A DNA stretch of 64,000 nt from Terracidiphilus sp. (GTDB taxonomy: Bacteria > Acidobacteriota > Terriglobia > Terriglobales > Acidobacteriaceae), in contig JBMFHB010000002.1 of NCBI GenBank assembly GCA_049977045.1, positions 47,355 to 111,354 on the forward strand. Reading direction: 5' to 3'. This document shows, piece by piece, positions 1,782-30,438 of this stretch. The notes beneath the pieces were generated by a model. The model saw only the letters and a list, made by a program, of their open reading frames with translations, searched no databases and was not told where the DNA came from. Both the position numbers and the translations under genes were made by a program. The first letter of the stretch is position 1. Each line of letters opens with the position of its first letter.

Positions 1782-1844
1782 TCACACCTTAAGCGCCGCT
1801 AAATCACGTGCGGCGCGCGCGGTAATGTTAACGAGATAAGCCAC
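1782..1844 (-). pseudogene. ParE/RelE-type toxin remnant (about 20 codons only)
   Basis: GTG-started frame overlapping the antitoxin stop reads (M)AYLVNITARAARDLAALKV then TGA. This matches the usual ParE N-terminus pattern (Y-x-V-x-I/F-T-x-x-A-x-x-DL), but the rest of the toxin is missing. Confidence 0.4.
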
Positions 1845-2133
1845 GCGCCGACTCGAACTCGCGGAAGAACTCACGTGCCGGATGCGTTCTTCCGCCTCTT
1901 GCGTCTTCCAATCCCTGACGCACGCCTTCCCTGGCATCGGCACGCGCCGCCACGTCGAGCAACCGCTGATAGGCTTCAGCATCCTGAACCACGGCCGCAG
2001 CCTTGCCGTTCAACGTAAGCACCAGGGGACGCTTGCTCTTCCTCAGTTGTCTGATCATACGCGCGGAGCCGCGACGAAACTCAGTCAACGATTGAATGTC
2101 CGTGACGATATTCAGCACGATTCCTCCCGTCAA
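1828..2133 (-). CDS. Phd/YefM family type II antitoxin (orphan)
   Basis: 101 aa; SLTEFRRGSARMIRQL...RPLVLTLNGKAAAVVQDAEAYQRL is the classic Phd/YefM fold signature. Confidence 0.75.
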   Translation of the reverse strand: MTGGIVLNIVTDIQSLTEFRRGSARMIRQLRKSKRPLVLTLNGKAAAVVQDAEAYQRLLDVAARADAREGVRQGLEDARGGRTHPAREFFREFESARGLSR

Positions 2134-2864: not shown

Positions 2865-3623
2865 TTATGCCAGAAGCACTTCAATCCCATTTTTGCGTAG
2901 CATGGCAACGTATTCCGGCGCGAGTTGCGCGTCGGAGACGACAAGATGCGCGGCGGTGAGCGGAGCCACGGGAATCATGCCGCCGCGTCCGAACTTGGTG
3001 TGGTCGGTCACGATGATCACGCGGCTCGCCACCTCGATCATCTTCTGCTCCGAACCCACGACGAGCGTATTGTTGTTGCTCAATCCAGCTTCGGTAACGC
3101 CGCCAATTCCCATGATGACGGTATCGGCGCGAATGGCGCCGAGCATCTGCTCGCAGAAGGGACCGAGCATGACGCGCGAGCGCGGGTCTAGATAGCCGCC
3201 GGTCAGCGTCAATTCGATATTGCGCAAAGACTCGAGCCCCTCGGCAATGGGCAGCGAGTTGGTGACGATATGCAGCGACTTCGAGGTCAGTTCGCGCGCC
3301 ACCGCGGCCACGGTCGAGCCGCCATCGAGAATCACGGTCTGGCCGTCTTCGATGAGGCCCGCCGTGAGCTTGCCGATGCGGCCTTTCTCGTCGCTCAGGC
3401 GCACGCTCTCCACCGCGTAATCCGAGGCGTGATTCGGCGAGACCTGCACACTCACCGCGCCGCCGTAGACGCGCTTGAGCAGGCCTTCCTGTTCCAGGAT
3501 GTCGAGATCGCGGCGGACACTCGATTCCGATGCGTCGAGTTCGCGGCAAAGAGTCTCCGAGTCGATGAAGTCCCGGGTCTCAAGCATCTGGCGAATTCGC
3601 AGTTGCCGCTCTGCAGCCTTCAT
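2865..3623 (-). CDS. DeoR family transcriptional regulator (last gene of the BMC operon strand)
   Basis: N-terminal wHTH (ETLCRELDASESSVRRDLDILEQEGLLKRVYGGAV) plus DeoR C-terminal sugar-phosphate sensor domain. Confidence 0.9.
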   Translation of the reverse strand: MKAAERQLRIRQMLETRDFIDSETLCRELDASESSVRRDLDILEQEGLLKRVYGGAVSVQVSPNHASDYAVESVRLSDEKGRIGKLTAGLIEDGQTVILDGGSTVAAVARELTSKSLHIVTNSLPIAEGLESLRNIELTLTGGYLDPRSRVMLGPFCEQMLGAIRADTVIMGIGGVTEAGLSNNNTLVVGSEQKMIEVASRVIIVTDHTKFGRGGMIPVAPLTAAHLVVSDAQLAPEYVAMLRKNGIEVLLA

Positions 3624-3677
3624 CGTCTATCCGTGTTACGCCTGATTTTTCGCTCCCGCAGTTCCGCAGTCCCTGCC

Positions 3678-4778
3678 CTATCGCATCGCTTCCATCACCG
3701 CATCCGTCACCGACTTGACCAGCGATTCAAGATCGCTGTCCGAAGCCGCGGCAGCTCTTGACGTGGGCCCGTCACAGGGCGTAGGTTCGACCGCGATCGA
3801 GCCTGGCACCTCGAGGTCGGACAACTGGCACTCCTTCATGCGCGAAGTGTCAAAACGAATATCCGGCAGGCCCAGCTTCTTTTTGATGGCCAGCAGATCG
3901 GTGCCATGCTCATCGGAGATGCGTGAGATAGGCGCGCCAAGCTGTGAGGCGATCAACAGCGTCCAGCAGTAAGTCTCCAGCACTTCGGCATACCACTCGG
4001 CGTGTGTCACCGTGTCGGCCCAGCACACAATTCCATGATTCGAGAGCAGGACGGTGTTGTGTTGCTTCACATAAGGCAGCACAGTTTCAGCGAAGGCCTT
4101 CGTGCCCGGCGTCTCGTAAGGGGAAACCGCAACCTTGCCGACAAAAACCTCGAACTCCGGAATGATGAGATTGGGCGGCACGCGGCCCGTGATGGCGTAG
4201 GCCGTGGCATGCGGCGGATGGCAGTGAACCACCGCCTTGGCTTCCGGCACCGCCTTGTAAATCTCCAGATGCAGCAGCAACTCGCTCGTCCGGGGCTTAG
4301 AGCCGGCAATCTGAACGCCGTCCATGTCTGTCATCCCGATCACCTCGGGCGTCAAATCGTATTTGCTCACCAGAGTTGGCGTGCAGAGCACTTCATTGGG
4401 TCCGATGCGGTAGGAGATGTTTCCGCCGTTGCCGTCGACGAACTGGCGCATCCAGAGCTTGCGGCCCACCGAGCAGATCTCTTTCTTGACGGCCTCGGCT
4501 TCAGGCGAGGTGAAAAGACGGCGATTGACAGCGGAAGCGGCGGGCGCGGCGGGCGCTAAAGCCGGGGTCGGCTGTGCGGCGGGCGCAGAGACCGCTGCCG
4601 CGCCTTCCACCACAAGCTCGATGCCGTGCTGCTGCAAAAAATCGCGCGCCGAAGGCGTGACGATGCTGTTGGCCGCGACCACAATGCTGCCGGCTCCCGC
4701 TGACAATGCGTCCTGCACATCGCGCATTGCAATCAGCTTGCGCCCGCCAAGATCGATGCTTTTTTCTCCGCTTTTCAC
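3678..4778 (-). CDS. class II (fuculose/rhamnulose-1-phosphate type) aldolase with extra N-terminal domain and C-terminal encapsulation-peptide-like helix
   Basis: Core carries VVHCHPPHATAYA zinc-His motifs. About 60 aa of unassigned N-terminal domain is followed by an Ala/Pro linker; the C-terminal helix is DSDLESLVKSVTDAVMEAMR. Confidence 0.85.
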   Translation of the reverse strand: MKSGEKSIDLGGRKLIAMRDVQDALSAGAGSIVVAANSIVTPSARDFLQQHGIELVVEGAAAVSAPAAQPTPALAPAAPAASAVNRRLFTSPEAEAVKKEICSVGRKLWMRQFVDGNGGNISYRIGPNEVLCTPTLVSKYDLTPEVIGMTDMDGVQIAGSKPRTSELLLHLEIYKAVPEAKAVVHCHPPHATAYAITGRVPPNLIIPEFEVFVGKVAVSPYETPGTKAFAETVLPYVKQHNTVLLSNHGIVCWADTVTHAEWYAEVLETYCWTLLIASQLGAPISRISDEHGTDLLAIKKKLGLPDIRFDTSRMKECQLSDLEVPGSIAVEPTPCDGPTSRAAAASDSDLESLVKSVTDAVMEAMR

Positions 4779-4800
4779 TTCTCCACCTCGAACAAACTCT

Positions 4801-5088
4801 CTATTGCCCCACGTCTACCGCGTCCACAATCAGCGCCAGGTATGCATCTACCGGCACCTGTGCGGGCCAAAAAGGATTCGCGGCCTCGCGGCCTTCCGTA
4901 AACGCCACCAACTGGCCCATTGCCGCACCCAGTTCGTCGACCGCAATCAGCGCCTTGCCGCCGCCCTGCTCATTCTTCGCGCGGAGGTTTTCCATCGTCA
5001 CCGGCTCCACAATCTTGAGCGTGCGCCCCTGAAATGACGCGACGGCATGCGCGAGGGTCACTTGACCGCGGACGATGCCGAGCCTCAT
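4801..5088 (-). CDS. BMC-P pentameric vertex shell protein (EutN/CcmL family)
   Basis: 95 aa; MRLGIVRGQVTLAHAV... N-terminus is typical of Pfam03319-type proteins; start overlaps the upstream stop (ATGA). Confidence 0.9.
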   Translation of the reverse strand: MRLGIVRGQVTLAHAVASFQGRTLKIVEPVTMENLRAKNEQGGGKALIAVDELGAAMGQLVAFTEGREAANPFWPAQVPVDAYLALIVDAVDVGQ

Positions 5089-5369
5089 GCGGCGCCTCCT
5101 GCGAAGGGTTGCTGCACCGCATCCACCAGGCCCGCGACCACCAGGCGCGCCGGCGTGTTGTTGCCCAACCTCTGGCGCGAAATATCGCCGTCGGTCGAAA
5201 CCATGACTGTCTCACCCTGCGCAGCGCCCATCCAGTCCACGACGACGATCGGTTCTTCCGCCGCGGTTCCATCTGCCTCCAGCCGCTGCGCAACAAGAAA
5301 CCTGCATCCGTTCAATGAGGGATGCTTTGCCGTTGCCACGACCGTGCCTGCAATCCGCACCAGAAACAT
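5085..5369 (-). CDS. BMC-P pentameric vertex shell protein (EutN/CcmL family)
   Basis: 94 aa; MFLVRIAGTVVATAKHPSLNGCRFLVAQ... Confidence 0.9.
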   Translation of the reverse strand: MFLVRIAGTVVATAKHPSLNGCRFLVAQRLEADGTAAEEPIVVVDWMGAAQGETVMVSTDGDISRQRLGNNTPARLVVAGLVDAVQQPFAGGAA

Positions 5370-5371
5370 TG

Positions 5372-6826
5372 CTAGATAATCCTCAGTGCATTCCCGACCA
5401 CAATCTGCCGTTCGCGCGTAAAGGTGAGCGGCGTCGTGATTCCTTCGCCCGTCGGCGTGGCGATGGTGTGGCTGAAGTAGCCCGGGCCGCCCACACCCAG
5501 CGACGCCGGCGAGGCCGCGTTGTGAATGAACAACGTGGTGTTCACTGCCTTCGCCATGCGCGTCGCCGTCTCCAGATTGTTGGTGTGAATGACGGCGGTG
5601 TGCCCGTAGCCGTGTTCCGCGCGGACCGCGGCGGCAATCGCCTCATCCACGTTCTTCACCCGCACGACGGGCACGAACGGCATCATCTGTTCTTCCTGAA
5701 CAAATGCATGCTCCTCGACGGTCTCGCCGAAGAGCAGATCGGTTCCGGCAGGCGCCTGCACACCGGCTGCTTTTGCCAGCACGGCCACATCCTTGCCCAC
5801 CAGATCCTTTTTCACATGCGCGCGGGCGCAGCCGCCGCCGTCGCCTTCAAACGTAAACGCAGCCTTGGTGAGCCGGTCGATCGCCGCCGCATCCAGTTGA
5901 TAAGCTCCCGCGCGCTTCATGGCCGCGATAAACGCATCGGCTACCGATGCCACCACGAAGACTTCCTTTTCGCCGATGCACAGCAGATTGTTGTCGAAGG
6001 CCGCGCCATCGATGATGCAGCGCGCCGCGCGATCGAGATCCGCGGTTTCATCCACTACCACCGGCGGATTTCCCGGCCCGCCTGCGATGACGCGCTTGCC
6101 CGACATGGCCGCGGCCCTGGCCACCGCCGCGCCACCCGTGCAGCAGAGCAGCGCCACCTTGGGGTGATGGAAGATCTGCTCGGCAGCTTCGATCGTCGGC
6201 TCCACGGTGGTTGTGAAAACATTGGCCACGCCCAGTTCGCGCTCAATCTCGCGATTCCACAACTGCAACGCATACTGCGCCACGCGCTTGCCCGAAGGAT
6301 GCGGCCCGAAGACCGCCGTATTTCCCGCGGCAACAACATTAATGGCGTTCGAGGCCATGGTTGGCACCGAATGTGTGACCGGCAGCATCATGCCGACGAC
6401 GCCCCAGGGCGCGTGCTCGATGATGCAGACGCCAGTGGTGCTGCTGCGCGCCTCGGTGTGCAACGCCTCCACGCCAAGCACAAAGCGCATGTTCTGCAGC
6501 TTCAGAATCTTGTGGTCGAGGCGGCCGACCTTGGTCTCTTCCAGCTCCATGCGGCCCAGTTCTTCACGCCGGTCGTTGCAGATGCCACGCACGATGTCCA
6601 CAATGCGCATACGGTCTTCGAGCGGCATCGCCGCTACTTTCTTCTGCGCCTCGAATGCCGCGTTCACCGCCTCGTCCACGGTGGCAAAGATGCCATCGCG
6701 CGCAGACGATTTTGGCGCGGGAACGGGCGCTGCCGGCGCCGTCTGCATCTGCATGCGCAGCCGCGCAACCACTTCCTTTGCGATCTCTTGAATCATCTGC
6801 GGCGAAACTTGCTGTTCGGTCTGCAT
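5372..6826 (-). CDS. CoA-acylating aldehyde dehydrogenase (PduP/EutE-like) with N-terminal encapsulation peptide
   Basis: Catalytic Cys context FDNNLLCIGEKEV. N-terminal amphipathic helix PQMIQEIAKEVVARLRMQM is followed by a Pro/Ala linker. Confidence 0.9.
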   Translation of the reverse strand: MQTEQQVSPQMIQEIAKEVVARLRMQMQTAPAAPVPAPKSSARDGIFATVDEAVNAAFEAQKKVAAMPLEDRMRIVDIVRGICNDRREELGRMELEETKVGRLDHKILKLQNMRFVLGVEALHTEARSSTTGVCIIEHAPWGVVGMMLPVTHSVPTMASNAINVVAAGNTAVFGPHPSGKRVAQYALQLWNREIERELGVANVFTTTVEPTIEAAEQIFHHPKVALLCCTGGAAVARAAAMSGKRVIAGGPGNPPVVVDETADLDRAARCIIDGAAFDNNLLCIGEKEVFVVASVADAFIAAMKRAGAYQLDAAAIDRLTKAAFTFEGDGGGCARAHVKKDLVGKDVAVLAKAAGVQAPAGTDLLFGETVEEHAFVQEEQMMPFVPVVRVKNVDEAIAAAVRAEHGYGHTAVIHTNNLETATRMAKAVNTTLFIHNAASPASLGVGGPGYFSHTIATPTGEGITTPLTFTRERQIVVGNALRII

Positions 6827-6848
6827 AGAAAAACTCCCCGAATCCCGT

Positions 6849-7145
6849 CTACGGTTTCGCGACGGCCACGCCGTTCACCTCGATCATGTCCACGATGCCC
6901 ACAATCACTGCATCGACGGGCGCGTCCTTGGTTGCGGGCGTCAGGCGCGCCGAACTGCCCTGCGTAAACAGCACGCACTCACCGACGCCAGCGCCCACGC
7001 CGTCCACCGCGACAACGGAGCTGCCCGAGATCTGCAGCTTGCCTTCCTTGTTGATGTAAGGCTGAACCAGGAGCAGCTTCATGCCGCGGAACTTCGCGAT
7101 CTTCTGCGTGGAGACCACGTTGCCGATGACTTTCGCGATGAACAT
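6849..7145 (-). CDS. BMC-P pentameric vertex shell protein (EutN/CcmL family), third paralog
   Basis: 98 aa; MFIAKVIGNVVSTQKIAKFRGMKLLLVQP... Confidence 0.9.
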   Translation of the reverse strand: MFIAKVIGNVVSTQKIAKFRGMKLLLVQPYINKEGKLQISGSSVVAVDGVGAGVGECVLFTQGSSARLTPATKDAPVDAVIVGIVDMIEVNGVAVAKP

Positions 7146-7298
7146 TGCGAACCTCTTTAAAGGGCCGCGCGCGCAGAGGCTAAAGCCCCCGTTCGTGTTG
7201 GGCCGACTCTTGCGGCACGGCCAAGGCCGCGCCCTTTCAAAGCCGACGACCGCCGCAGGCCGTGGAAATCCGCGCCTGCCTGCCGTACCGTTTCACAA

Positions 7299-7329
7299 CG
7301 CCTCGCCTGAAACACGAACCGGCGAGGCG
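7299..7329 (-). other. intra-operon hairpin in the 197-bp spacer between BMC-H and BMC-P genes
   Basis: CGCCTCGCC (7299-7307) pairs with GGCGAGGCG (7321-7329) across a 13-nt loop; no clear U-tract follows. Confidence 0.3.
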
Positions 7330-7342
7330 GAATCCCGCTTCG

Positions 7343-7615
7343 CTATTTCGGCAGGACGGTGCCCAGCGAATCGTGCGGACGCGCGATCACATGCACGCTC
7401 TGCACCTCGCCGGCCGCGCGAGCCGCTGCCGCGCCCGCATCGACCGCGGCGCGCACCGAACCCACGTCGCCCGTGACATACACAGAGCAGAGGCCGCTGC
7501 CCGCCTTGTTCCAACCCATATACCTGACGCTCGCCGCCTTCAGCATGGCGTCCGTCGCCTGCACCAGAGCCACCAGGCCCTTGGTTTCGATCATCCCGAT
7601 TGCTTCACTCGCCAT
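7343..7615 (-). CDS. BMC-H hexameric shell protein (PduA/EutM-like, Pfam00936)
   Basis: [26 protein letters not shown]..., KAGSGL pore loop, RPHD C-terminal motif. Confidence 0.95.
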
Positions 7616-7637
7616 TGCGATCTCCCTCTTCTGATGC

Positions 7638-7907
7638 CTACTTCAACAAGTTCTCGACCAGCGCATCGTGGGGCCGCGGAATCACGTGCGACGACACCAG
7701 TTCGCCGACCACCTTGGCCGCGGCTGCGCCTGCATCTACCGCCGCGCGCACGCTGCCTACGTCGCCACGCACGATCACGGTGACATAGCCGCCGCCGATC
7801 GGCACCGTCTTTACCAGCTCCACGCTGGCAGCCTTCACCATGGCGTCGCTCGCTTCCACGATTCCCACCATGCCCCTGGTTTCAATCAATCCGATTGCCT
7901 GACTCAT
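7638..7907 (-). CDS. BMC-H hexameric shell protein
   Basis: [26 protein letters not shown]..., IGGGYVTV pore loop. Confidence 0.95.
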
Positions 7908-7924
7908 CGCTTCTCCTCGAAGTG

Positions 7925-8048
7925 CAGCTTCTAGCTGCCAGCTTCTAGCTTGTTCGTGCTGTGTCTACCGGGCTGTCATTTGAGCTTGCGTCCCGGAATA
8001 TCCACGAAAGCTCGTTCTCCCGCCTCCAAGCTAGCCGCTAGAAGCTGG
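7925..8048. repeat. CTAG-rich inverted clamp bracketing the BMC-H2/BMC-H3 spacer
   Basis: CAGCTTCTAGC occurs at 7925-7935 and 7939-7949. CCAGCTTCTAGC (7938-7949) is the exact reverse complement of GCTAGAAGCTGG (8037-8048). Confidence 0.7.
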
Positions 8049-8058
8049 GAGCTTGCCT

Positions 8059-8352
8059 TTACGCCTTCTTCGCCGCCGCTTTGCTCTGCTGAACGAAAGA
8101 CGGCAGCTCGTCGTGAGGCCGTGAGATCACTTGCACGCTCACCACCTCGCCGATTCTCGATGCCGCTTCCGCGCCCGCATCGGTAGCAGCTTTAACGGCC
8201 GCCACGTCGCCTTCGACGAAGGCGGTCACCAGACCCGAACCTACGGTCTGCCAGCCGGCGAACGACACGTTTGCCGATTTGAGCATGGCGTCGGTCGCTT
8301 CAAACAGCGCGACCAAACCCTTTGTCTCAACCATTCCCAGCGCTTGTTTCAT
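8059..8352 (-). CDS. BMC-H hexameric shell protein with Lys/Ala-rich C-terminal tail
   Basis: [26 protein letters not shown]..., VGSGL pore loop, tail [10 protein letters not shown]. Confidence 0.95.
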
Positions 8353-8394
8353 CGCTTCCTCTCTTGTTGCTTGGCGTTACTTCCCTGTTGCGAC

Positions 8395-9084
8395 TTACTT
8401 GAAAATCTCCAATTCCCTGGTCAAATGCAGACCGCAGGCATTGGCTTCGTCCGTATCCATGTGCACGTTGAGCCGCGACGAAGGGTCGATGCGCACATGC
8501 ACGTTATTAAACGTCACGCTCGAAGGGCCGCCCACACGCAGCTTCATCCTGTCGCCCTTCTTGACACCGAAATAGGCGGCCTCCTGCGGATTCATGTGCA
8601 CGTGGATGGCGGCGCGGATCACACCCTCTTTCAGTTCCACCACACCCTTGGGCCCGACAATCACCGCGCCCGGCGTGCCCTCGATGTCGCCCGAGAGCCG
8701 CACCGGCAGGTCGTTGAAGCCCAGCATAATGGCGTCGGTAAAGGCCAGCTCCACCTGCGACTGCTTGCGCATCGGTCCCAGAATGCGCAGGTTGGAGATG
8801 ATGCGGCTGCGCGGCCCGACAATCGTCACCATTTCCCTGGCCGCGAAGTTGCCTTCCTGAAAAAGCGGACGGTCGAAGGTCAGCTCCGAGCCGGGGCCAA
8901 ACAGCACATCCATATCTTCACGGCACACATGCATGTGGCGCGACGAGGCCTGCACCACCAGCTCCGGCGCCTTGCCGTTGGGGGCCCCGGATTTCCCGCG
9001 CCCCAGATACTCGAGCGCCACCTGGCGCACAATACGTTCCACCGTCGCCCTGTCGATCACCGGATTTCCTGTGCTTGCCATCAT
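8395..9084 (-). CDS. pduL: phosphate acyltransferase PduL with N-terminal encapsulation peptide
   Basis: Two PduL repeats with metal-binding His motifs (SSRHMHVCREDMD; AAIHVHMNPQEA). N-terminal helix is DRATVERIVRQVALEYL. Confidence 0.9.
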   Translation of the reverse strand: MMASTGNPVIDRATVERIVRQVALEYLGRGKSGAPNGKAPELVVQASSRHMHVCREDMDVLFGPGSELTFDRPLFQEGNFAAREMVTIVGPRSRIISNLRILGPMRKQSQVELAFTDAIMLGFNDLPVRLSGDIEGTPGAVIVGPKGVVELKEGVIRAAIHVHMNPQEAAYFGVKKGDRMKLRVGGPSSVTFNNVHVRIDPSSRLNVHMDTDEANACGLHLTRELEIFK

Positions 9085-9132
9085 CAGTCCTTAGCAGAGT
9101 TAGCGGAGTTAGCCGGACAAGCTGCTGCCGTG

Positions 9133-9166
9133 CTATCCCCTCAGTCCCTTAGTCCCTTAGTCCCTG
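9133..9166 (-). repeat. tandem octamer (plus-strand AGTCCCTT, about 3 copies) giving TAA/TGA/TAG in three frames at the ackA stop
   Basis: Minus-strand stops read from plus-strand TTA 9149-9151 (native ackA stop), TCA 9141-9143 and CTA 9133-9135. The 8-nt spacing puts them in all three frames. Confidence 0.75.
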
Positions 9167-10330
9167 CCTTTTCACCACTGCCACCGTCTCCCGCGCCACA
9201 ATCGACTCCTCGTTGGCGGGGATGACGAGAACTTTTACCTTGGAGTGCGGCGTCGAAATCTCACCTTCGCCGCCGATCCTCTGGTTGGCCATCTCGTCGA
9301 GATCCATGCCGAAGGCCGCTGTCCCTTTGAGCACTCCAGCGCGAATCGCAGCGCTGTTTTCGCCAATCCCGCCCGAAAACGTGATCACGTCCAGGCCGCC
9401 CAGTTCCAGCATGAACGCGCCCAGGTAGTGCCGGATGGCGTGGACAAAAACATCGAGCGCGAGCTGCGCCCGGGCGCTTCCCCTGGCCGCTGCCTCTTCG
9501 AGGTCGCGCAGATCGCCACTGGCGCCGCTGATCCCAGCCAGGCCCGACTGGCTGCCGAGCAATTTGGCCATCGCATCCGGCCCCATGCCGAGCTTTTTCA
9601 TCATGTGCAGCACGGCGAATACATCGATATCGCCCACACGGTTGTTCTGCGGCAGGCCCGACTGCGGCGAGGCACCCATGCTTACGTCCACCGCAACGCC
9701 GTTGCGAAAGGCGGCTACACTCGAACTGCCACCCAGATGGCAGGAGATGTGGCGCAAATCCTTGCGCGAGAGAAACGCCTGCGTGCGTTCGCTGGCCGAG
9801 CGGTGACTGGCGCCGTGAAATCCATAACGCCGGATTCCATGCTCCGTTCGCCACTCGTAGGGAACGGCATAGGTCGTCGACGCTTCGTCCATGAACCGGT
9901 AGGGAAACGGCTCCATCACCGCGACCAGCGGCACGCCCGGCAACTCCTGCCGGAAACCCTTCATGGCGGCGATATACGGCGGATTGTGCGCCGGAGCCAG
10001 GAAGATAAACTCCTCCATGGCGGCAAGAAACCTGTCATCGACGATCTGCGGTGTATTGAGTGGCCCCGCGTGCACAGCCTTGAAGCCAACAGCCGCAATT
10101 TCGCCAAGGCTCTTGAGCGGCTTGCCCGCTCCGGCAATCTCACTGAGACATTTTCTGATCGCGGCGGGGTAATCGGCGCACTCGCCGCCCGGCTGGCCGA
10201 TGCGCTCCACGCGGCCCTGCGCCAGCACGGTTTCTCCCGGAGCCGACGCACCCGAAGCGTCGATTTCCGAGAGTTCAAGTAACCGGTACTTGAACGAGGT
10301 GCTGCCGATATTGGGGATCAAGACCTTCAT
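9149..10330 (-). CDS. ackA: acetate/propionate kinase
   Basis: MKVLIPNIGSTSFKYRL N-terminal ASKHA motif; full-length 393 aa; no obvious encapsulation peptide. Confidence 0.9.
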   Translation of the reverse strand: MKVLIPNIGSTSFKYRLLELSEIDASGASAPGETVLAQGRVERIGQPGGECADYPAAIRKCLSEIAGAGKPLKSLGEIAAVGFKAVHAGPLNTPQIVDDRFLAAMEEFIFLAPAHNPPYIAAMKGFRQELPGVPLVAVMEPFPYRFMDEASTTYAVPYEWRTEHGIRRYGFHGASHRSASERTQAFLSRKDLRHISCHLGGSSSVAAFRNGVAVDVSMGASPQSGLPQNNRVGDIDVFAVLHMMKKLGMGPDAMAKLLGSQSGLAGISGASGDLRDLEEAAARGSARAQLALDVFVHAIRHYLGAFMLELGGLDVITFSGGIGENSAAIRAGVLKGTAAFGMDLDEMANQRIGGEGEISTPHSKVKVLVIPANEESIVARETVAVVKRQGLRD

Positions 10331-10424
10331 TTTTGACTGTTCTTGATTGAAAATGAATGATACGATAATTTAGTCGCCAGAGTCAATCACTAAATTTGGC
10401 GGTTTTTGAGGGATAATCCGAGGT
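10331..10424. promoter_or_regulatory. AT-rich divergent control region between the ackA-led BMC operon and the pduS/pduT-like pair
   Basis: Marked GC drop. TTGACT (10333-10338), TTGATT (10343-10348), GATAAT (10364-10369 and 10412-10417). Inverted AATTTAG/CTAAATT and TGATTG/CAATCA pairs could be DeoR operators. Confidence 0.35.
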
Positions 10425-11768
10425 ATGACTCCACAAACGAGCATTACCGGACCAACTTCTGCCAGGCTTACCTCCTCGCTCGACCGCATCGAGGAGCTGG
10501 GGATTATCGGCGCCGGCGGCGGCGGCTTTCCCACGGCAGTCAAGTTCAAGGCCCAGGCGCCTCTATTGATTGCCAACGCCGCCGAGTGCGAACCACTGCT
10601 GCACAAAGACAAGGAACTGCTCCACCACCATGCCGAGCCATTCCTGCGCGGCATGACGATGGCGATGCAACTGGTAGGCGCACGTGAGGGCGTCATCGGC
10701 ATCAAGGAAAAGTATTTGGAGATCATTGCCGCGCTCGAGGCGAAGGTTCCAGAGAACATTCGCGTTGCGCCGCTGCCCGACTGCTACCCAGCCGGCGACG
10801 AGTTCATCCTGGTGCACATGGTCACGGGTCGAGTGATACCGCCTGGCGGCCTGCCGAAAGACGTCGGCGCAACCGTCTCCAACGTGGAAACGCTAATGAA
10901 CATCGGCCTGGACCGGCCGGTGACGCACAAGTATCTAACCGTCGCGGGCGCGGTTGCCCATCCCGTGACGCTGCGCGTACCCGTAGGCATCACGATCGGC
11001 GAAGTGATTGAGGCCGCGGGCGGCGCGACCGTTCCCGACTTCGGCGTCCTTCTGGGCGGCGTGATGATGGCCCGGCCCGCCGCCAATCTCGACGTACCTG
11101 TCACGAAGACCACGGGCGGCATCATCGTGTTGCCCGCCGAGCACGCGCTCATCCGCCGGCACAATGCGCCGTGGATGCACATCGCCAGGATTGGCCGGTC
11201 GGCATGCGATCAATGCCGCTTCTGTACCGAGTTCTGCCCGCGCTATCTGCTCGGCCATCCCATCGAGCCGCACATGGCGATGCGCTCGCTGGGTTTCTCC
11301 GAGCCGGGGGATCTTACTGTAGCCACGCTCTATTGCTGCGAGTGCAACCTGTGCACCATGTTCGCGTGCCCCGAGGATCTGGACCCGAAGAACGTTTGCG
11401 TGCAGGGCAAGCCGATTGCGCGCGAGCGCGGACTGACGTGGAAAGGCACACCGGATTCGATCCAGCCGCATCCGATGGCGGAGTTCCGCCGCGTGCCCAT
11501 GCGCCGGCTTATCGCCAAACTCGGTCTGGGCGAGTTTGTGAACGAAGGGCCGCTTACCGAATACAATTTTGCTCCGCGCAAGGTGACGATTCCGCTCAAG
11601 CAACATGCTGGCGCGCCCGCAGCTGCAGTGGTAAAGTGCGGCGACCGCGTGCGCGTGGGCGATCTGCTGGCCGCGCCCGAGCCGGGGCAGCTCGGCGCGC
11701 GCATTCACTCGAGCATTGACGGCCACGTCACGGTGGGCAAGGATGCCGTGGTGATTGAAGCAGTTTGA
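10425..11768 (+). CDS. PduS-like Fe-S flavoprotein (RnfC/NuoF-type nucleotide-binding domain, SLBB, two 4Fe-4S motifs)
   Basis: GIIGAGGGGFPTAVKF glycine-rich motif; CDQCRFCTEFCP and CCECNLCTMFACP cluster motifs. C-terminal IPLKQHAGAP...VGDLL...HSSIDGHV resembles the RnfC N-terminal barrel. Confidence 0.85.
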   Translation: MTPQTSITGPTSARLTSSLDRIEELGIIGAGGGGFPTAVKFKAQAPLLIANAAECEPLLHKDKELLHHHAEPFLRGMTMAMQLVGAREGVIGIKEKYLEIIAALEAKVPENIRVAPLPDCYPAGDEFILVHMVTGRVIPPGGLPKDVGATVSNVETLMNIGLDRPVTHKYLTVAGAVAHPVTLRVPVGITIGEVIEAAGGATVPDFGVLLGGVMMARPAANLDVPVTKTTGGIIVLPAEHALIRRHNAPWMHIARIGRSACDQCRFCTEFCPRYLLGHPIEPHMAMRSLGFSEPGDLTVATLYCCECNLCTMFACPEDLDPKNVCVQGKPIARERGLTWKGTPDSIQPHPMAEFRRVPMRRLIAKLGLGEFVNEGPLTEYNFAPRKVTIPLKQHAGAPAAAVVKCGDRVRVGDLLAAPEPGQLGARIHSSIDGHVTVGKDAVVIEAV

Positions 11769-11780
11769 AGAGATTGCCAC

Positions 11781-11807
11781 TGTTCACTGACCACTGACCA
11801 CTGTTGA
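11781..11807 (+). repeat. heptad repeat (CCACTGA) placing TGA in three frames after the pduS-like stop
   Basis: TGA at 11788, 11795 and 11805 fall in three different frames. The block sits between the stop at 11766 and the GGAG RBS of the next gene. Confidence 0.75.
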
Positions 11808-11820
11808 AAAGGAGCCAAAC

Positions 11821-12384
11821 GTGGCGACAGAAATTAACTCCATTGGACTGATCGAGCTTTCGAGCGTAGCAACCGGATTCGTCGTCGAGGACCAGATGCT
11901 GAAGGCGGGATCTGTGCAACTGCTGCTGGCGCGCAGCATCTGCTCGGGCAAGTTCCTGATCGTGGTTTCGGGCGACGTCACCAGCGTGCAATCGGCGCTC
12001 CTCGCCGGGGCTGCCGCCGCCGGAGCCTCATTGATTGAGCGCCGCCAGATTGCGCGCGTGCATCCGCAGGTGCTGCAGGCCATTTCGCAGAGCGTAGACA
12101 TTCCGCCAAGCCAGCTAAAGTCGATCGGCGTGATTGAAACTTTTTCGGCGGCCAGCATCATTGAAGTGGCAGACACCGCCGTCAAATCCGCAGCCGTCAC
12201 GTTGATGAAGGTTCATCTGGCCATGGCGCTGGGCGGCAAGGGCTTCGTGGTCATGGCCGGCGACGTGGCCAGCGTGCAGGCCGCCGTCGCTGCTGGCTCA
12301 AAGGCGGCAGCCGACGACGGCATGTTGGTGGGCAGAGGCGTGATTGCAGCTCCGTCGCCGGAGTTGTTCAAGGAATATATCTAA
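11821..12384 (+). CDS. BMC-T tandem-domain shell protein, PduT-like (candidate 4Fe-4S pore)
   Basis: 187 aa made of two BMC domains. ARSICSGKFLIVVSGDV matches the PduT KTICPGKFLL segment that carries the cluster-ligating Cys (recalled from memory, not aligned). Confidence 0.85.
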   Translation: MATEINSIGLIELSSVATGFVVEDQMLKAGSVQLLLARSICSGKFLIVVSGDVTSVQSALLAGAAAAGASLIERRQIARVHPQVLQAISQSVDIPPSQLKSIGVIETFSAASIIEVADTAVKSAAVTLMKVHLAMALGGKGFVVMAGDVASVQAAVAAGSKAAADDGMLVGRGVIAAPSPELFKEYI

Positions 12385-12493: not shown

Positions 12494-14941
<2,448 letters not shown>

Positions 14942-14988: not shown

Positions 14989-17022
14989 CTACGGGTGATT
15001 TCCTGGTTCCCGTTTGTCCGTGAAGAACGTCTCGACATCCACGATGTTCTGCGTCATGCGGTAGGGCGGAAGAGACTGGAGGAAGATCTGGCCATAGCGC
15101 TGGGTGCGAACGCGCGGGTCGAGGAGCACCAGCAGGCCGCGATCTTCGAGCGAGCGGATAAGGCGGCCGAATCCCTGCTTGAGGGTGAGCACGGCCTCGG
15201 GAACCTGGTAGTCGAAGAAGGGACGGCCGCCGGATTCCTCGATGGCCTTCATACGCGCCTGGACGACGGGATCGGACGGCACGGCGAAGGGCAGACGGTC
15301 GATGATGACGCAACTGAGCGCCTCACCCTGCACGTCGACGCCCTGCCAGAAGCTGGACGTGCCGAAGAGGACGGCGTTGGGCGTAGAGCGGAACTCTTCG
15401 AGGAGGGCTTTGCGCGGGGCCGTGCCGTGGAGGAGGACGGGGTAGTCGAGTACAGGCAGCAGCCGCTCGTAAAGCGCCCGCATCTGGCTGTAGCTGGTGA
15501 AGAGGCAGAAGGCGCGGCCGCGGGTGATGCCGAGGATGCGCTCGATGGTTTTGGCGGCAGCCTCGGGGAATTCAGCGGCGCGCGGGTCGGGCATCTGCGG
15601 AGGCAGGTAGAGCAGCGCCTGGCGGTCGTAACGGAAGTGCGAGGGGACGACAAGCTCGCGCGTATCCTTGAGGCCGAGACGGCGGCGCAGGTGCTCAAAA
15701 CCGCCCTGCACAGTGAGCGTGGCCGAGGTGAGCACCACTGTGGGCGTCTGCTCCCAGACGAGTTCGTTCAGGATGGTGGAGACATCGATGGGTGTGGCTT
15801 GAAGGAATGTGGTTCTCATGCCGCCGCGCGTGGCCGTTCTTCGGTCTGGATTCGTTGGCGCTCCGCGACGTTCCAGCCAGAAGACCATGTTGTCCGCTTT
15901 GGCTTCGAGCAGGAAGGAGAGGTCTGTGCGGAGGGCGGCCGCGCGGGCCTCGAGACCGGAGGCTTCGTCGATTTCGCCGAGGTGGTCGAGTTCCGCTTCA
16001 AGGAGCTTGAGCGTCGTGTTGACGCCGAGATAGAGATCGCCGGAGGACTCGAGGAACTCCTCGCGATTGGCGAAAGGATGACGGCCGTCGCCCCCCTGCG
16101 GTAGAGCCGCGAAGAAGAGCCGCGCACGCTCGCGCAACTGTTGCGTGAGGATGTACACCTGCGAGGAGTCCTGCTTGCCGCGCAAAAGCACGTCGGCATC
16201 GCGGGCAAAGTCCTCAAAGCGCACGTTCGAAAGCGAACGGCCAAAATAATTTGACGCCACCTCTTCGAGTTCGTGCGCCTCATCAAAGACAACGGCCGAG
16301 GCCTCGGGCAGGATGCCGGCATCGGGCGCGGCTACGGCTGCCGCGCGCACGGCAGCGTCGGCAAAGAAGAGGTGGTGGTTGACGATGATCAGGTCCGATT
16401 CCATGGCGCGGCGGCGCATCTCGGTGATGAAGCAGCGGCGGTAATCGGGGCAGGATGAGCCGAGACAGGCTTCGGACCTCGCGTCGAGCTTGTGCCAGAG
16501 GGCGCTCGATTCAGGCAGGCCGGAGAGTTCGGCGCGATCGCCGGTCTCCGTTATCTTCTCCCACTCGGCGACCTGCCGGTATTCGTCAATCTCTTCAAGG
16601 CCGGTAAGGATGGGCTGGTCGCGCAACGCATGGAGCTTGTGGCGGCAGAGGTAGTTGGCGCGGCCTTTCATGTAGCAGACGCGCAACTCGCCCAGAAGCG
16701 CCTCGAGAAATGGCACATCGCGGAAGAAGAGCTGATCCTGCAGGGCCTTGGTTCCGGTGGAGACGATGACGCGCTGGCCGGTACGCAGCGCGGGCAGCAG
16801 GTAGGCGAGGGTTTTGCCGGTGCCTGTACCGGCTTCGACGATGAGATGGCGGCGCTCGGCGAGCGCGCGCTCGACGGACTTGGCCATCTCGTACTGGCCG
16901 GGACGGTACTCGTAAGGGAGTGGCGAGCGGGCGAGGATGCCACCGGGCGCGAAGAACTCGTGGAGGGTGGGCAGGGCGCGGGTTGGAGCGTTCGAGGAGG
17001 GCATGGAGGGCGCTGCATCCAT
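14989..17022 (-). CDS. dinG: ATP-dependent DNA helicase, DinG/XPD (Rad3) family
   Basis: Walker A EAGTGTGKT and DEAH box VVFDEAHELE. Cys residues fit an XPD-type Fe-S domain (YLC, CLGSSCPDYRRC). Start is uncertain (17022 or 17103). Confidence 0.85.
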   Translation of the reverse strand: MDAAPSMPSSNAPTRALPTLHEFFAPGGILARSPLPYEYRPGQYEMAKSVERALAERRHLIVEAGTGTGKTLAYLLPALRTGQRVIVSTGTKALQDQLFFRDVPFLEALLGELRVCYMKGRANYLCRHKLHALRDQPILTGLEEIDEYRQVAEWEKITETGDRAELSGLPESSALWHKLDARSEACLGSSCPDYRRCFITEMRRRAMESDLIIVNHHLFFADAAVRAAAVAAPDAGILPEASAVVFDEAHELEEVASNYFGRSLSNVRFEDFARDADVLLRGKQDSSQVYILTQQLRERARLFFAALPQGGDGRHPFANREEFLESSGDLYLGVNTTLKLLEAELDHLGEIDEASGLEARAAALRTDLSFLLEAKADNMVFWLERRGAPTNPDRRTATRGGMRTTFLQATPIDVSTILNELVWEQTPTVVLTSATLTVQGGFEHLRRRLGLKDTRELVVPSHFRYDRQALLYLPPQMPDPRAAEFPEAAAKTIERILGITRGRAFCLFTSYSQMRALYERLLPVLDYPVLLHGTAPRKALLEEFRSTPNAVLFGTSSFWQGVDVQGEALSCVIIDRLPFAVPSDPVVQARMKAIEESGGRPFFDYQVPEAVLTLKQGFGRLIRSLEDRGLLVLLDPRVRTQRYGQIFLQSLPPYRMTQNIVDVETFFTDKREPGNHP

Positions 17023-17090
17023 GATAGAGAAGCGGGGAGCACGGGAACGAGGGGACAGGGAAACGGGAGGGTGAAATGTGCGTCTTTTGT

Positions 17091-17125
17091 TTGACTTTGC
17101 CAAGTGGACTAAGGATACTTAGTCC
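17091..17125 (+). promoter_or_regulatory. candidate promoter plus palindromic operator abutting the antitoxin start codon
   Basis: TTGACT (17091-17096), 17-nt spacer, GATACT (17114-17119). Perfect palindrome GGACTAAG-GATA-CTTAGTCC (17106-17125) ends 1 nt before ATG 17126. Confidence 0.4.
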
Positions 17126-19629: not shown

Positions 19630-21708
19630 TTATCGCTGCGCGGGCTCGGTAGGTGGCGGCAAGGCGCTATCCGCGCCGTCGAGACGCCGAATGTGCACGC
19701 TGGCCTCAGTTTCGGGAACCGTACCATTGTTGGCCTGAACTTCAGTGGGACGGCCCTGGATAAGAATGTGCTGCGCGATCGAGCCGCGCGCGGGAACGAG
19801 GATGCGCTGGGTCACCGAAGTGTCGGCGTTGCGCACGATGACAGGAATTTCGGCAGTTGCGTAGCCGGAGTTGGAGAGGCTTACGGTAACGAGCCATCCG
19901 TTGGCGATGGCAGTCTCGTCATCAGTATTAGTCGAGCTCGATGTGTGCGCGGGCCGCTCCACGGAGGTAAAAAAGACGTTATTGATGGCGATGTCGGGAA
20001 GTCCTTTGTCGGCGTCGATCCAATCGGCGAAGAACCACGATAAATCGCGGCGCAGACCGGCCTGTTCGAGGAGCTTTTCGAACGATCCCGATCCCGACGC
20101 GGGCCCAAGACCACGCGCTGCGTCCTGCGCGGGATCGTAGGCTCGCAGCGCGGCGGAGAGCGCGGCATCGCCGACCAGATCGCGCAGCATCCAGAAGACA
20201 TAAGCGGCTTTGGTGCGGTAGTAGATGGGCGAGATGGCCTGGGCGAGCGGCTGGCCGGCGCTCTCGCCGGGGCTGGAAGGCTCGATCAGCGCCAGCGCGG
20301 CGCGGCCCGATGCCAGCGATTCGAGCGCCTTTTCGCGGCCCAACTGTTTTTCAAGCCATAACGTTCCCATGAAGTGCGCGACACCTTCGCTCAACCAGGC
20401 GCGAGGCGACGACATCCACGCGTGGGTCAGCGCATGAGCCATGGCTCCCGTGAGGCGATCGCTCGGAAGCTGCCTGATGGGAATGACCAGCAGCGCGCCG
20501 GTTTCGAAGGGCGCGTCCTGGGGATCTGGAGGATCGAGAACCGTGAGCTGCGAACGCGGCGCATGGCCAAGCCAGCCGGCGAGGAAGGGCGTGACCGTGG
20601 AAATCGCAGAGGACCATGCGGGAACGGCTGCGTCGTCGGCCGGCAACGTCCAGAGAGTGGTGTTGGTGGCGTGGCTCTGGTTGCGCACGGCGACGAAGAG
20701 GCTGGGGGCCTCAAAGCCGAGCGTCGCGCTCTCCAGCGTGGCCGTGGCGATGCCGGGGATCTCGCCGCCTCCGTTCTGGGGCTCGGTGATGGCGAGCGGT
20801 ACGGAATGTCCGTTGATGAGAGCGACTGTGGGCTTGTGATCGTGAGGAAACTCGACGGTGAGGTGCAGGAAGAAATGCGCGCCGGCCATGCGCAGCTTGT
20901 GCTCGCCCATCTCGTCGAAGACGCGCGAACCATCGCCAAGAATCACCGGGACGGAGGAGGCAGGATACCAGACCACATTGCCGAAGCCGCGCAGGCCGGT
21001 AAAGTCGGTATCGATCTCGTCCCAGTCGGAGTGCAGAGCCATGTCTTCGGGAGTTCCAAGAGCGATGAGCCGTTGCGCCGACTGCAGAATCGTGCCGGAA
21101 TACGTGACATCGAGTTGCATCGAAGCGCCGGGCGCGAGCGGCGTGGAGAGCTTGACAGCGGCCTCATGAAGCTGGCCAGTGTGGTCTGTGTCGGAGTTGA
21201 GCGTGGCGACGGTATAGAGAGCGTCCCGGCCAGCAACGCGGATGCGCTCCCAGCGGAGCGACGAAGAGAGCTGGAGCGGGATGTACGCGAGCGGCCCTTT
21301 GCCGTCGTTGCGCACGGTAATGAGGGCGCGGACGGCAATCTCGTGCGTGGCGGGGCGGAGATGCACATCCATATTGAATTCCGTGAAGGTGACAGCCTCG
21401 CGCTCTGCGTCGCTGGCGGTCGGCGCCTGGACAGCTTCGCCGCCGGGGTTCTTCACTTGCACGCCGGGACCGACGGTGGTCGTGGTCACGCCGTTCTTGT
21501 CGGTTGAGCGCGAGAAGATGACCTGGCCGTGATGAGGCTGCTCCTGCGAAGCCGCAGGCGTGCTTTGCGCTGCTCCGGGAAGCGCGACGAAGAGCAAAAC
21601 GCTCGCGAGAATGAGATGGATTGTGCGCGAGAACTCCCAGCTTTTCGCAAGGAACGCGAAAGGTTGGGGCACGGGGCTGGTTGCAACATCGAAAGATTGA
21701 TTTCTCAT
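19630..21708 (-). CDS. exported gluzincin (MA clan) peptidase-like protein with HALTH in place of HExxH
   Basis: Signal-like N-terminus. MAHALTHAWMSSPRAWLSEGVAHF resembles the HExxH...E zinc site, but the Glu codon is GCG (Ala; motif at nt 20386-20436). Confidence 0.6.
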   Translation of the reverse strand: MRNQSFDVATSPVPQPFAFLAKSWEFSRTIHLILASVLLFVALPGAAQSTPAASQEQPHHGQVIFSRSTDKNGVTTTTVGPGVQVKNPGGEAVQAPTASDAEREAVTFTEFNMDVHLRPATHEIAVRALITVRNDGKGPLAYIPLQLSSSLRWERIRVAGRDALYTVATLNSDTDHTGQLHEAAVKLSTPLAPGASMQLDVTYSGTILQSAQRLIALGTPEDMALHSDWDEIDTDFTGLRGFGNVVWYPASSVPVILGDGSRVFDEMGEHKLRMAGAHFFLHLTVEFPHDHKPTVALINGHSVPLAITEPQNGGGEIPGIATATLESATLGFEAPSLFVAVRNQSHATNTTLWTLPADDAAVPAWSSAISTVTPFLAGWLGHAPRSQLTVLDPPDPQDAPFETGALLVIPIRQLPSDRLTGAMAHALTHAWMSSPRAWLSEGVAHFMGTLWLEKQLGREKALESLASGRAALALIEPSSPGESAGQPLAQAISPIYYRTKAAYVFWMLRDLVGDAALSAALRAYDPAQDAARGLGPASGSGSFEKLLEQAGLRRDLSWFFADWIDADKGLPDIAINNVFFTSVERPAHTSSSTNTDDETAIANGWLVTVSLSNSGYATAEIPVIVRNADTSVTQRILVPARGSIAQHILIQGRPTEVQANNGTVPETEASVHIRRLDGADSALPPPTEPAQR

Positions 21709-24306: not shown

Positions 24307-24381
24307 CGGTATCTCCCGTCGCAGTTGATCGTCCGGTCTGCGCTCATCGAGACGGCGCAGTGGCCGGAAAGGTTAGCAAGC

Positions 24382-30419: not shown

Positions 30420-30438
30420 GGGGAAAGTCTCCAAAACA

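Follow-up and report, generated by a model that had tools for sequence, protein, structure and literature searches.

Can an aldolase-based metabolosome of the kind named after the Planctomycetes and Verrucomicrobia (PVM) be encoded by an acidobacterium, and if so, what would it degrade? This question is raised by a cluster of 13 genes at positions 2865-12384 of a 64-kb stretch of DNA from Terracidiphilus sp. (contig JBMFHB010000002.1; the whole stretch is called the window below). The genes encode shell proteins of bacterial microcompartments (BMCs), a class II aldolase, a CoA-acylating aldehyde dehydrogenase (AldDH), a phosphotransacylase (PTAC) of the PduL type, the kinase AckA, a DeoR-family regulator, and a pair of PduS-like and PduT-like proteins. 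It is almost certain that the cluster encodes a metabolosome, and we consider it quite likely that it is a complete, self-contained locus of the aldolase-signature PVM family that works by the mechanism proposed below.

Gene content of the locus

The minus strand is transcribed in the order ackA, pduL, three BMC-H genes, one BMC-P gene, the AldDH gene, two further BMC-P genes, the aldolase gene, and the DeoR gene. The PduS-like and PduT-like genes lie on the opposite strand and point away from this operon:

2865-3623, minus strand: DeoR-family transcriptional regulator, encoded at the end of the minus-strand unit (PF00455 2.7e-42, PF08220 4.4e-12)
3678-4778, minus strand: class II aldolase of the FucA/RhaD superfamily, the signature enzyme, 366 residues (PF00596 2e-44)
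4801-5088, minus strand: BMC-P paralog 3, pentameric vertex protein, 95 residues (PF03319 1.2e-16)
5085-5369, minus strand: BMC-P paralog 2, 94 residues (PF03319 6.1e-22)
5372-6826, minus strand: CoA-acylating AldDH, 484 residues (PF00171; NF011927 551 bits)
6849-7145, minus strand: BMC-P paralog 1, PvmH-type, 98 residues (PF03319 2.7e-30)
7343-7615, minus strand: BMC-H hexamer protein 3, 90 residues (PF00936 2.3e-25)
7638-7907, minus strand: BMC-H hexamer protein 2, 89 residues (PF00936 4.3e-29)
8059-8352, minus strand: BMC-H hexamer protein 1, 97 residues, with a short Lys/Ala C-terminal tail (PF00936 6.3e-26)
8395-9084, minus strand: PduL-type phosphotransacylase, 229 residues (PF06130 1.8e-66; NF011652 231.8 bits)
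9149-10330, minus strand: acetate/propionate-family kinase AckA, 393 residues, first gene of the minus-strand unit (PF00871 4.9e-93)
10331-10424, no strand: divergent promoter/operator region of 94 bp with sigma-70-like sites and a putative operator function
10425-11768, plus strand: PduS-like flavo-iron-sulfur protein (metabolosome NADH dehydrogenase, MNdh), 447 residues (Complex1_51K 1e-41, SLBB, Fer4_17, RnfC_N)
11821-12384, plus strand: PduT-type tandem-domain shell trimer (BMC-T^SE), 187 residues (two PF00936 domains)

The locus limits 2865 and 12384 coincide with ends of open reading frames (ORFs). In a profile search of the ORF translations all 13 proteins scored above the Pfam gathering threshold, and AldDH, PduL, and AckA additionally exceeded NCBIfam subfamily cut-offs. 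The operon and the divergent gene pair had been proposed from the letters alone in a first reading (the original prediction), and every gene has been recovered at its coordinates and on its strand with a score above the Pfam cut-off. This includes the shell genes, seven out of seven of which are recognised by the PF00936 or PF03319 hidden Markov models (HMMs).

The shell set of three BMC-H, one tandem-domain BMC-T, and three BMC-P genes is clustered, which is the hallmark by which a BMC locus is recognised. The BMC-P paralogs are mutually divergent (29-37% identity): paralog 2 shares 29-30% identity with the other two, and paralog 3 shares 37% and 29%. The ORFs of paralogs 2 and 3 overlap by four nucleotides, suggesting translational coupling.

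The enzymes are well defined at the subfamily level. AldDH reached 551 bits against NF011927 (PRK15398, EutE-type), for which the cut-off is 403, and among PDB entries it comes closest to the BMC AldDHs 5jfl (1.5e-103), 6gvs, and 4c3s. The segment CIGEKE (residues 283-288) is conserved in the orthologs and, from general knowledge of EutE/PduP-type enzymes, is taken by us to be the segment of the catalytic cysteine. PduL scored 231.8 bits against NF011652 (cut-off 209) and AckA 300.9 bits against TIGR00016 (cut-off 293.4). The best NCBIfam matches of the DeoR protein are GlpR/AgaR-type sugar-phosphate repressors, all under cut-off.

Host and relatives

The host belongs to the Acidobacteriota, class Terriglobia, family Acidobacteriaceae, and is of the Terracidiphilus/Occallatibacter type (the NCBI taxonomy now places Terracidiphilus under Occallatibacter, Acidobacteriaceae, Terriglobia). 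It thus stands outside the PVM phyla, as had been suspected, and the relatives of the aldolase and of BMC-P are also found in Terracidiphilus/Acidobacteriaceae. A tblastn scan in which each GTDB species was represented by one genome gave 295 places with a relative of the aldolase, and the best 80 of these 295 were analysed. By record title all 80 are Acidobacteriota, mostly Terracidiphilus/Acidobacteriaceae from peat, bog, and soil. Full-length relatives of the aldolase share 71-96% identity, the named ones being 'Terracidiphilus sp.' metagenome-assembled genomes (MAGs). BMC-P paralog 1 (98 residues) has a counterpart of 100% identity, NCBI MGC9222468.1, in a Terracidiphilus sp. MAG; the 120 matches listed in the BMC-P search apparently all belong to one clade with at least 82% identity, and the named ones are all Terracidiphilus.

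The order of the 13 genes is identical in all complete loci among the best 80 genomes (tblastn of the window proteins), and the cluster is therefore not a chance grouping. Most genes are 65-99% identical across the 80 loci with BMC-H being the most conserved (82-99% for BMC-H protein 1), and even the distant relative L087, whose aldolase is only 48% identical, retains the same gene order. The DeoR gene is more variable than the other genes of the locus. Among the 80 relatives, full-length loci usually have its ortholog (72-90% identity) directly after the aldolase gene; about 16 full-length loci have only a DeoR-family gene of about 47% identity nearby, on either strand, and about seven have no DeoR-family gene within the fetched DNA. 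The flanks vary between related loci and contain unrelated genes (among them LpxK, Kdo transferase, histidine kinase, Tex, and one GH28). The constant order of the 13 genes together with the differing flanks identifies the locus as a discrete module.

Probable assignment to the PVM family

The locus was compared with the PVM and MIC4 types by their published descriptions and by the tree label of one ortholog. This ortholog is found in SbA5 ('Ca. Sulfotelmatomonas gaucii', Acidobacteriaceae bacterium SbA5; locus L012), which has the same gene order and 80-96% identity per protein. In the tree files of Sutter 2021 (PMC8217296) SBA5_100014 (a BMC-T of 187 residues, T_pdut) and SBA5_100021 (a BMC-P of 98 residues, pvmH) are labelled 'bmcType=PVM (main)'. 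The lengths of these two proteins match the present locus, as does their locus-tag spacing, which agrees with the gene order of L012. According to the same source the 98-residue BMC-P of SbA5 branches as basal sister of the PvmH clade from Verrucomicrobia and matches the 'true-pvmH' HMM best; BMC-P paralog 1 of the window is 94% identical to it. The match to the PVM gene set that had been claimed for the locus is upheld for the class II aldolase, AldDH, PduL, AckA, DeoR, the triplet of BMC-P, and the several BMC-H.

Encapsulation peptides

Targeting of the enzymes into the shell is indicated by terminal amphipathic helices, which resemble encapsulation peptides (EPs). AldDH starts with PQMIQEIAKEVVARLRMQM followed by a variable Ala/Pro linker, and its conserved N-terminal EP comprises residues ~9-27 (nucleotides 6746-6802, IAEIAKEVVARLR). 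PduL starts with DRATVERIVRQVALEYLG and continues with a short Gly/Lys/Pro linker, and its EP, which is also conserved, comprises residues ~11-27 (nucleotides 9004-9054, VERIVRQVALEYLG). The aldolase carries its EP at the C-terminus behind a variable linker (residues ~349-365, nucleotides 3684-3734 of the minus strand, DLESLVKSVTDAVMEAM), and L353, V357, T358, D359, V361, and M362 are invariant in the orthologs. AlphaFold2 (AF2) predicts a helix at aldolase residues 343-364, although in a full-length model with a predicted confidence (pLDDT) of 56.8. All three terminal helices are conserved and their linkers variable in acidobacterial orthologs of 70-96% identity. The hydrophobic moments of the helices lie at or above the 95th percentile within their own proteins, that of the aldolase EP (0.62) being the maximum of the protein. 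No EP-like terminus was found on AckA, whose termini have low hydrophobic moments, or on the PduS-like protein. A C-terminal EP on BMC aldolases together with N-terminal EPs on AldDH and PTAC has been described before (PMC4594438), and the same arrangement is part of the MIC4, MUF2, and MUF3 descriptions (PMC8217296 supplement). The encapsulation helices that had been proposed for AldDH, PduL, and the aldolase are therefore well supported by their conservation in orthologs, their strong amphipathicity, and their published arrangement.

Proposed NAD+ recycling

The PduS-like protein consists of an NADH/flavin mononucleotide (FMN) domain, an SLBB domain, and an RnfC_N barrel that is permuted to the C-terminus. 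It contains two cysteine motifs of the 4Fe-4S type, C261-x2-C-x2-C-x3-CP and C305-x-C-x2-C-x4-CP. The nearest PDB entries of the PduT-like protein are 3nwg (3e-43) and PduT (3n79/3pac). Its Cys41 (nucleotides 11941-11943) occupies the position of the pore cysteine in alignments with 3nwg and PduT, and the 'ICSGK' around this residue is kept in 64 of 64 orthologs. The locus has no gene for an iron- or zinc-dependent alcohol dehydrogenase or a member of the lactate/malate-dehydrogenase family, and none is conserved beside the locus in the 80 relatives. The scanned ORFs of the window (most ORFs above ~150 residues) also do not include a lactate/malate-dehydrogenase-family gene.

There is experimental evidence that pairs of MNdh and BMC-T^SE regenerate NAD+ (Sutter et al., PNAS 2024, PMC11626177), and 361 BMC loci carry such a pair without an alcohol dehydrogenase (PMC11626177). 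By its sequence features the PduS/PduT pair is most probably an MNdh/BMC-T^SE module that plausibly stands in for the alcohol dehydrogenase, and electron export by this route is probable in our view. Like the known modules, it consists of adjacent PduS-like and PduT-like genes in a locus with AldDH and without alcohol dehydrogenase, and it has the FMN domain, the two 4Fe-4S motifs, the permuted RnfC_N, and the pore cysteine. Unlike them, it is transcribed divergently as a unit of its own. In addition, the pore motif reads C-S-G-K instead of the published C-P-(G/S)-K (PMC11626177), which is a point against the proposed mechanism. The identity and divergent orientation of the pair had been read correctly from the beginning; the role in NAD+ recycling had been missed. 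Because it has no alcohol dehydrogenase, the acidobacterial clade offers a natural test case for NAD+ recycling by electron export only.

Proposed mechanism and substrate

If the locus works as we propose, the DeoR repressor would release both back-to-back promoters when a sugar phosphate builds up. The class II aldolase would cleave a ketose-1-phosphate into dihydroxyacetone phosphate and an aldehyde, which by analogy with the PVM organelles would be L-lactaldehyde derived from L-fuculose-1-phosphate and/or L-rhamnulose-1-phosphate. Inside the shell AldDH would convert the aldehyde, CoA, and NAD+ to acyl-CoA (lactyl-CoA) and NADH, and PduL would convert the acyl-CoA to acyl-phosphate with recycling of the CoA. 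AckA would then generate the free acid (lactate) and ATP, probably outside the shell because it does not have a targeting helix. The NADH would be re-oxidised by the PduS-like MNdh instead of an alcohol dehydrogenase, with the electrons passing from FMN and two [4Fe-4S] clusters of MNdh to a [4Fe-4S] cluster at Cys41 in the PduT-like pore and on to the exterior of the organelle.

Concerning the substrate, the passages on Planctopirus in two studies tie PVM organelles experimentally to fucose and rhamnose (PMC4207490, PMC8217296). By analogy, a deoxy-hexose phosphate, L-fuculose-1-phosphate and/or L-rhamnulose-1-phosphate, may be the substrate, an assignment for which we consider the chances evenly balanced. 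Several findings weigh against it. The scanned ORFs of the window include no fucose/rhamnose isomerase or kinase, in agreement with what the original prediction had said about the vicinity of the locus, and no gene for a fucose/rhamnose isomerase, kinase, permease, or mutarotase is linked to the locus here or conserved in the flanks of the 80 relatives. In addition, the aldolase scored below every NCBIfam equivalog cut-off. Its best match is 3-oxo-tetronate-4-phosphate decarboxylase (OtnC; 122 versus 250 bits, 1.9e-35), and the second is L-ribulose-5-phosphate 4-epimerase, also below cut-off. The closest solved structure is the 5-deoxyribulose-1-phosphate aldolase DrdA (6btd, 1.6e-20), which is marginally ahead of FucA; further PDB matches are 6voq and 6vop at ranks two and three, and Escherichia coli FucA (1fua).

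It could therefore be that the organelle and its core chemistry are the same but that a different ketose-1-phosphate is cleaved. For example, 5-deoxy- or 5-methylthio-ribulose-1-phosphate would yield acetaldehyde or methylthio-acetaldehyde, and a pentulose-1-phosphate would yield glycolaldehyde, so that PduL and AckA would give acetate or glycolate instead of lactate. Such a feedstock would agree with the slight lead of DrdA over FucA as nearest structure by sequence, with the failure of any FucA or RhaD equivalog model to reach its cut-off, and with the lack of linked fucose and rhamnose genes in the window and in 80 related loci. The promiscuity of class II aldolases has also been stressed by Axen et al. 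(PMC4207490). However, the shell protein of the ortholog groups with the PvmH clade of the fucose/rhamnose organelles, and from general knowledge the flux through salvage seems too small for an organelle. Salvage of 5-deoxyribose is encoded in three-gene clusters with a kinase (PMC6079011), none of which is present here, and a C-terminal EP on the aldolase is a published hallmark of lactaldehyde-forming BMC aldolases (PMC4594438). We regard a different feedstock as rather unlikely.

The two best NCBIfam matches, and the second and third ranks of 6voq and 6vop in the PDB search, might also be taken to mean that the PF00596 protein is a decarboxylase, epimerase, or dehydratase (e.g. OtnC-like), and that the aldehyde is delivered by an enzyme encoded elsewhere. 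It is hard to reconcile this with the scores, which are far under the cut-offs, and with the EP-bearing architecture, which is that of BMC aldolases. Also, the PF00596 protein is the sole candidate for a signature enzyme in the conserved 13-gene unit, and a decarboxylase or epimerase from the family would presumably not provide AldDH with the aldehyde on which it depends. This explanation is very improbable, and cleavage of a deoxy-hexose phosphate by an encapsulated aldolase is the reading that we prefer.

Elsewhere in the window, a possible fucose cluster at 41085-43880 (minus strand) and 44268-45875 (plus strand) was considered and found unconvincing. It includes a weak RbsD/FucU-family ORF (29.9 bits, at ~41 kb), whose neighbours encode an aldo-keto reductase and a dehydrogenase of the Zn-dependent kind; the gene for an EmrB-type efflux pump of the major facilitator superfamily diverges from them.

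The extra N-terminal domain of the aldolase

The aldolase is composed of an extra N-terminal domain, an Ala/Pro linker, the core (~95-300), a cysteine-containing segment, a linker, and the C-terminal EP helix. The PF00596 match spans residues 100-272 only. The segment following the core (KECQL...PTPCDG) contains two invariant cysteines. Relatives with as little as 71% identity share this architecture over all 366 residues (100% coverage). The original prediction had recognised the C-terminal EP, which is upheld, and had overlooked the N-terminal domain. The domain and its occurrences in proteins other than the aldolases are as follows:

4605-4763, minus strand: extra N-terminal domain of the aldolase, residues ~6-58, motif RDVxxA..GA....V..VVTPSARDFL..HGI.L
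8001-9194 of locus L085: P0171, of the Cob_adeno_trans type (EutT/PduO-like), with the domain in duplicate, adjoining a PduS/PduT pair
1495-2163 of locus L082: P0172, an unknown protein of 222 residues with the domain and an N-terminal EP-like helix, between PTAC and BMC-P in a PDU/EUT-like locus
P0166: the domain with a remainder that is probably RpiB (PF02502), the single RpiB match among 29 scanned proteins
P0162: 163 residues, the domain with a Cys-rich middle part and a C-terminal EP, between AldDH and DeoR plus a PF00701 aldolase
P0173: listed among the further proteins of BMC loci that bear the domain

In 42 orthologs R19, D20, A29, T41, P42, S43, A44, and D46 of the domain are invariant. 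The domain (~50 residues) does not belong to any Pfam family. AF2 models aldolase residues 1-62 as a beta-alpha-beta-alpha-beta fold (pLDDT 83), and a fold search of the PDB, which was based on this model of the N-terminal domain alone, gave nothing significant (best E = 0.04). When 1.84 billion cluster representatives were searched exhaustively and without a profile, only 53 matches to the domain were obtained. Most of these are fragments of the same aldolases; the remainder are proteins of other BMC loci. Among these, P0162 fits the 'uncharacterized protein' of MUF2 loci as described by Sutter et al. 2021. Judging from these sequences, the domain seems to be a module that turns up repeatedly in association with BMCs and has been noted before but never been characterised. 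Its occurrence on unrelated proteins from other BMC loci suggests that it is probably a second docking module or a module for self-association or scaffolding. The recurring domain provides a small and tractable lead on cargo organisation beyond the classical encapsulation peptide.

Regulation and intergenic elements

The divergent region at 10331-10424 has a G+C content of 36% (62% in the genome) and contains back-to-back sigma-70-like promoters. The promoter on the minus strand (ackA side) is TTGACT-18-TATCAT and agrees at 10 of 12 positions. An alignment of 31 relatives shows that TTGACT and the -10 box are conserved, and in these relatives TCAA/(T)GTTCA repeats are found just upstream of ackA. 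These repeats are candidate DeoR operators.

A palindromic element of ~130-150 bp, which resembles REP/MITE elements (repetitive extragenic palindromes/miniature inverted-repeat transposable elements), has CTAGCT-rich inverted arms (GCAGCTTCTAGCTGCCAGCT ... AGCTAGAAGCTGGCAGCTAG). It is present at 7925-8055, between BMC-H1 and BMC-H2, and at 62927-63074; the arms are shared and the centres differ. When folded, the first copy gives a long stem (-58 kcal/mol, z = -2.9). The spacer between BMC-H1 and BMC-H2 has, in the orthologous loci, either ~23 nucleotides or, with the palindromic element, ~150-165 nucleotides, so that the element is an insertion polymorphism inside the operon. The element might act as a stabiliser or processing site of the mRNA that tunes the ratios of the shell genes.

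Novelty and significance

The original prediction had made novelty depend on the absence of a gene-for-gene match to an already catalogued type. Since the SbA5 ortholog with the same gene order is already catalogued as 'PVM (main)', the claim of novelty fails by this measure. The organelle type, the arrangement of the EPs, and the function of PduS/PduT are published, and the general picture of microcompartments is not changed by the locus.

Nevertheless, the locus and its relatives suggest that PVM organelles are not confined to the Planctomycetes and Verrucomicrobia, contrary to the text of the catalogue, and point to a clade of PVM-family organelles in Acidobacteriota that is very widespread and has been too little appreciated. 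Because the gene order is common to the best 80 acidobacterial loci, this organelle family belongs to the standard equipment of a dominant acidobacterial lineage of peat and forest soils. The organelle may channel deoxy-sugars of plant or microbial origin, which bears on models of carbon turnover in peatlands. It is a tentative and on the whole doubtful idea that the acidobacterial clade, which would be widespread among Acidobacteriaceae of peat and soil, forms a separate and so far undescribed subtype of the aldolase metabolosomes, in which electron export replaces the alcohol branch and the N-terminal domain of the aldolase provides a second docking or scaffolding module. If this were true, the alcohol-producing branch would be fully replaced by MNdh/BMC-T^SE, and all carbon of the aldehyde would consequently go to acid with the generation of ATP.

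Other features of the window

The genes that adjoin the locus are unrelated to it and encode a nicotinamidase (2173-2853), KatG (12494-14896, minus strand), and a DinG-like helicase (14989-17103). The adjacency of KatG to the locus is not kept in the relatives. Further on, two genes on the minus strand, at 28860-30434 and 30558-31304, between them encode an Fe/Mn superoxide dismutase and a glucose-6-phosphate dehydrogenase. KatG and these two enzymes fit an aerobic host.

Five large ORFs (359-692 residues) show a gene-like codon-position G+C bias and have no match in Pfam at E <= 1e-5 or in NCBIfam at E <= 1e-8. They are found at 19630-21708 (minus strand), 23380-24996 (plus strand), 39304-40917 (plus strand), 46680-48176 (minus strand), and 59057-60136 (plus strand). 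Two adjacent paralogs of PmbA/TldD-like metallopeptidases (575 and 692 residues) are encoded at 32295-36097 on the minus strand, with Pfam matching their C-terminal domains only. An ORF of 101 residues at 1828-2133 (minus strand) resembles, by eye only, an antitoxin of the Phd/YefM type. Rfam and tRNA scans of the window gave no matches.

Comparison with known microcompartment types

The naming of these organelles has changed over time. The 'PVM-like' loci of Axen 2014 (PMC4207490) formed a heterogeneous group, with Solibacter and Melioribacter among its members. In the re-sorting of Sutter 2021, Melioribacter was moved to MIC4, at least one Solibacter BMC-T locus to an ACI satellite, and 'PVMlike' became a Firmicutes type near GRM5. 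The name 'PVM-like', which had been given to the present locus in the original prediction, is thus appropriate in the sense of the aldolase-signature PVM family but not in the sense of the type that now carries this name.

The locus resembles the PVM type (Planctopirus limnophila/Verrucomicrobia; cluster 4.1 of Axen 2014; 285 loci in Sutter 2021) by its aldolase with C-terminal EP, acylating AldDH, PduL-type PTAC, acetate kinase, DeoR, and the triplet of divergent BMC-P. It differs in the host, which is an acidobacterium here, whereas the text of Sutter 2021 places PVM only in Planctomycetes and Verrucomicrobia. In addition, it has three BMC-H and a PduT-type BMC-T, whereas that text gives two BMC-H along with the three BMC-P. 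A PduS-like MNdh replaces the gene of the lactate/malate-dehydrogenase family, and the aldolase has the extra N-terminal domain. Some of these differences weigh against the assignment to the PVM family: canonical PVM loci have the lactate/malate-dehydrogenase-family gene and no PduS/PduT, and the locus here shows the reverse. Furthermore, the gene inventory fits the description of MIC4 in Sutter 2021 equally well, and the relatedness to PVM is suggested by the published tree label of a single ortholog. Literature searches found no paper on an acidobacterial PVM-family organelle or on its expression, microscopy, or enzymology.

It could therefore be asked whether the locus is better filed as MIC4-type (or MIC4/MUF-related), the acidobacterial clade then being one lineage of a broader group characterised by aldolase, AldDH, PTAC, AckA, and PduS/T. 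Canonical PVM with its two BMC-H, a lactate/malate-dehydrogenase-type gene, no PduS/T, and an occurrence only in Planctomycetes and Verrucomicrobia would favour such a filing, as would the fact that the extra domain of the aldolase is also present in a protein fitting the MUF2 'uncharacterized protein'. By description the locus shares with MIC4 (15 loci in Sutter 2021 including Melioribacter roseus) an AldDH with N-terminal EP, a PTAC, a PF00596 aldolase, a PF00871 kinase, the triplet of BMC-P, and PduS plus a PduT-type BMC-T with pore cysteine. The MIC4 type is further defined by an AldDH close to those of MUF2 and MUF3 and by BMC-H of the H_fuchsia or H_camo clades. However, the data files of the catalogue type the acidobacterial ortholog from SbA5 as PVM and not as MIC4, the BMC-P of SbA5 matches the 'true-pvmH' HMM best, and the list of MIC4 phyla does not include the Acidobacteria. 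Filing under MIC4 is thus somewhat unlikely but deserves to be kept in mind, and we prefer the PVM family.

The remaining types are more distant. With the 'PVM-like' type in the sense of Sutter 2021 (36 loci, Firmicutes) and GRM5 the locus has in common a class II aldolase, which is presumed to be the signature enzyme, AldDH, and PTAC. Those loci have Firmicutes hosts and GRM5-related AldDH, PTAC, and BMC-P, whereas a PvmH-type triplet of BMC-P and no glycyl-radical enzyme are found here. The ACI type (Acidobacteria subdivisions 4 and 6; 125 loci in Sutter 2021) also has an acidobacterial host, a PF00596 aldolase with C-terminal EP, and a triplet of BMC-P. In contrast to the locus described here, three unknown proteins and a hydroxyacid dehydrogenase are encoded in the main locus of ACI, and the ACI AldDH is encoded on a satellite locus and carries the EP near the C-terminus, whereas in the Terracidiphilus window the AldDH is part of the locus itself and carries its EP at the N-terminus.

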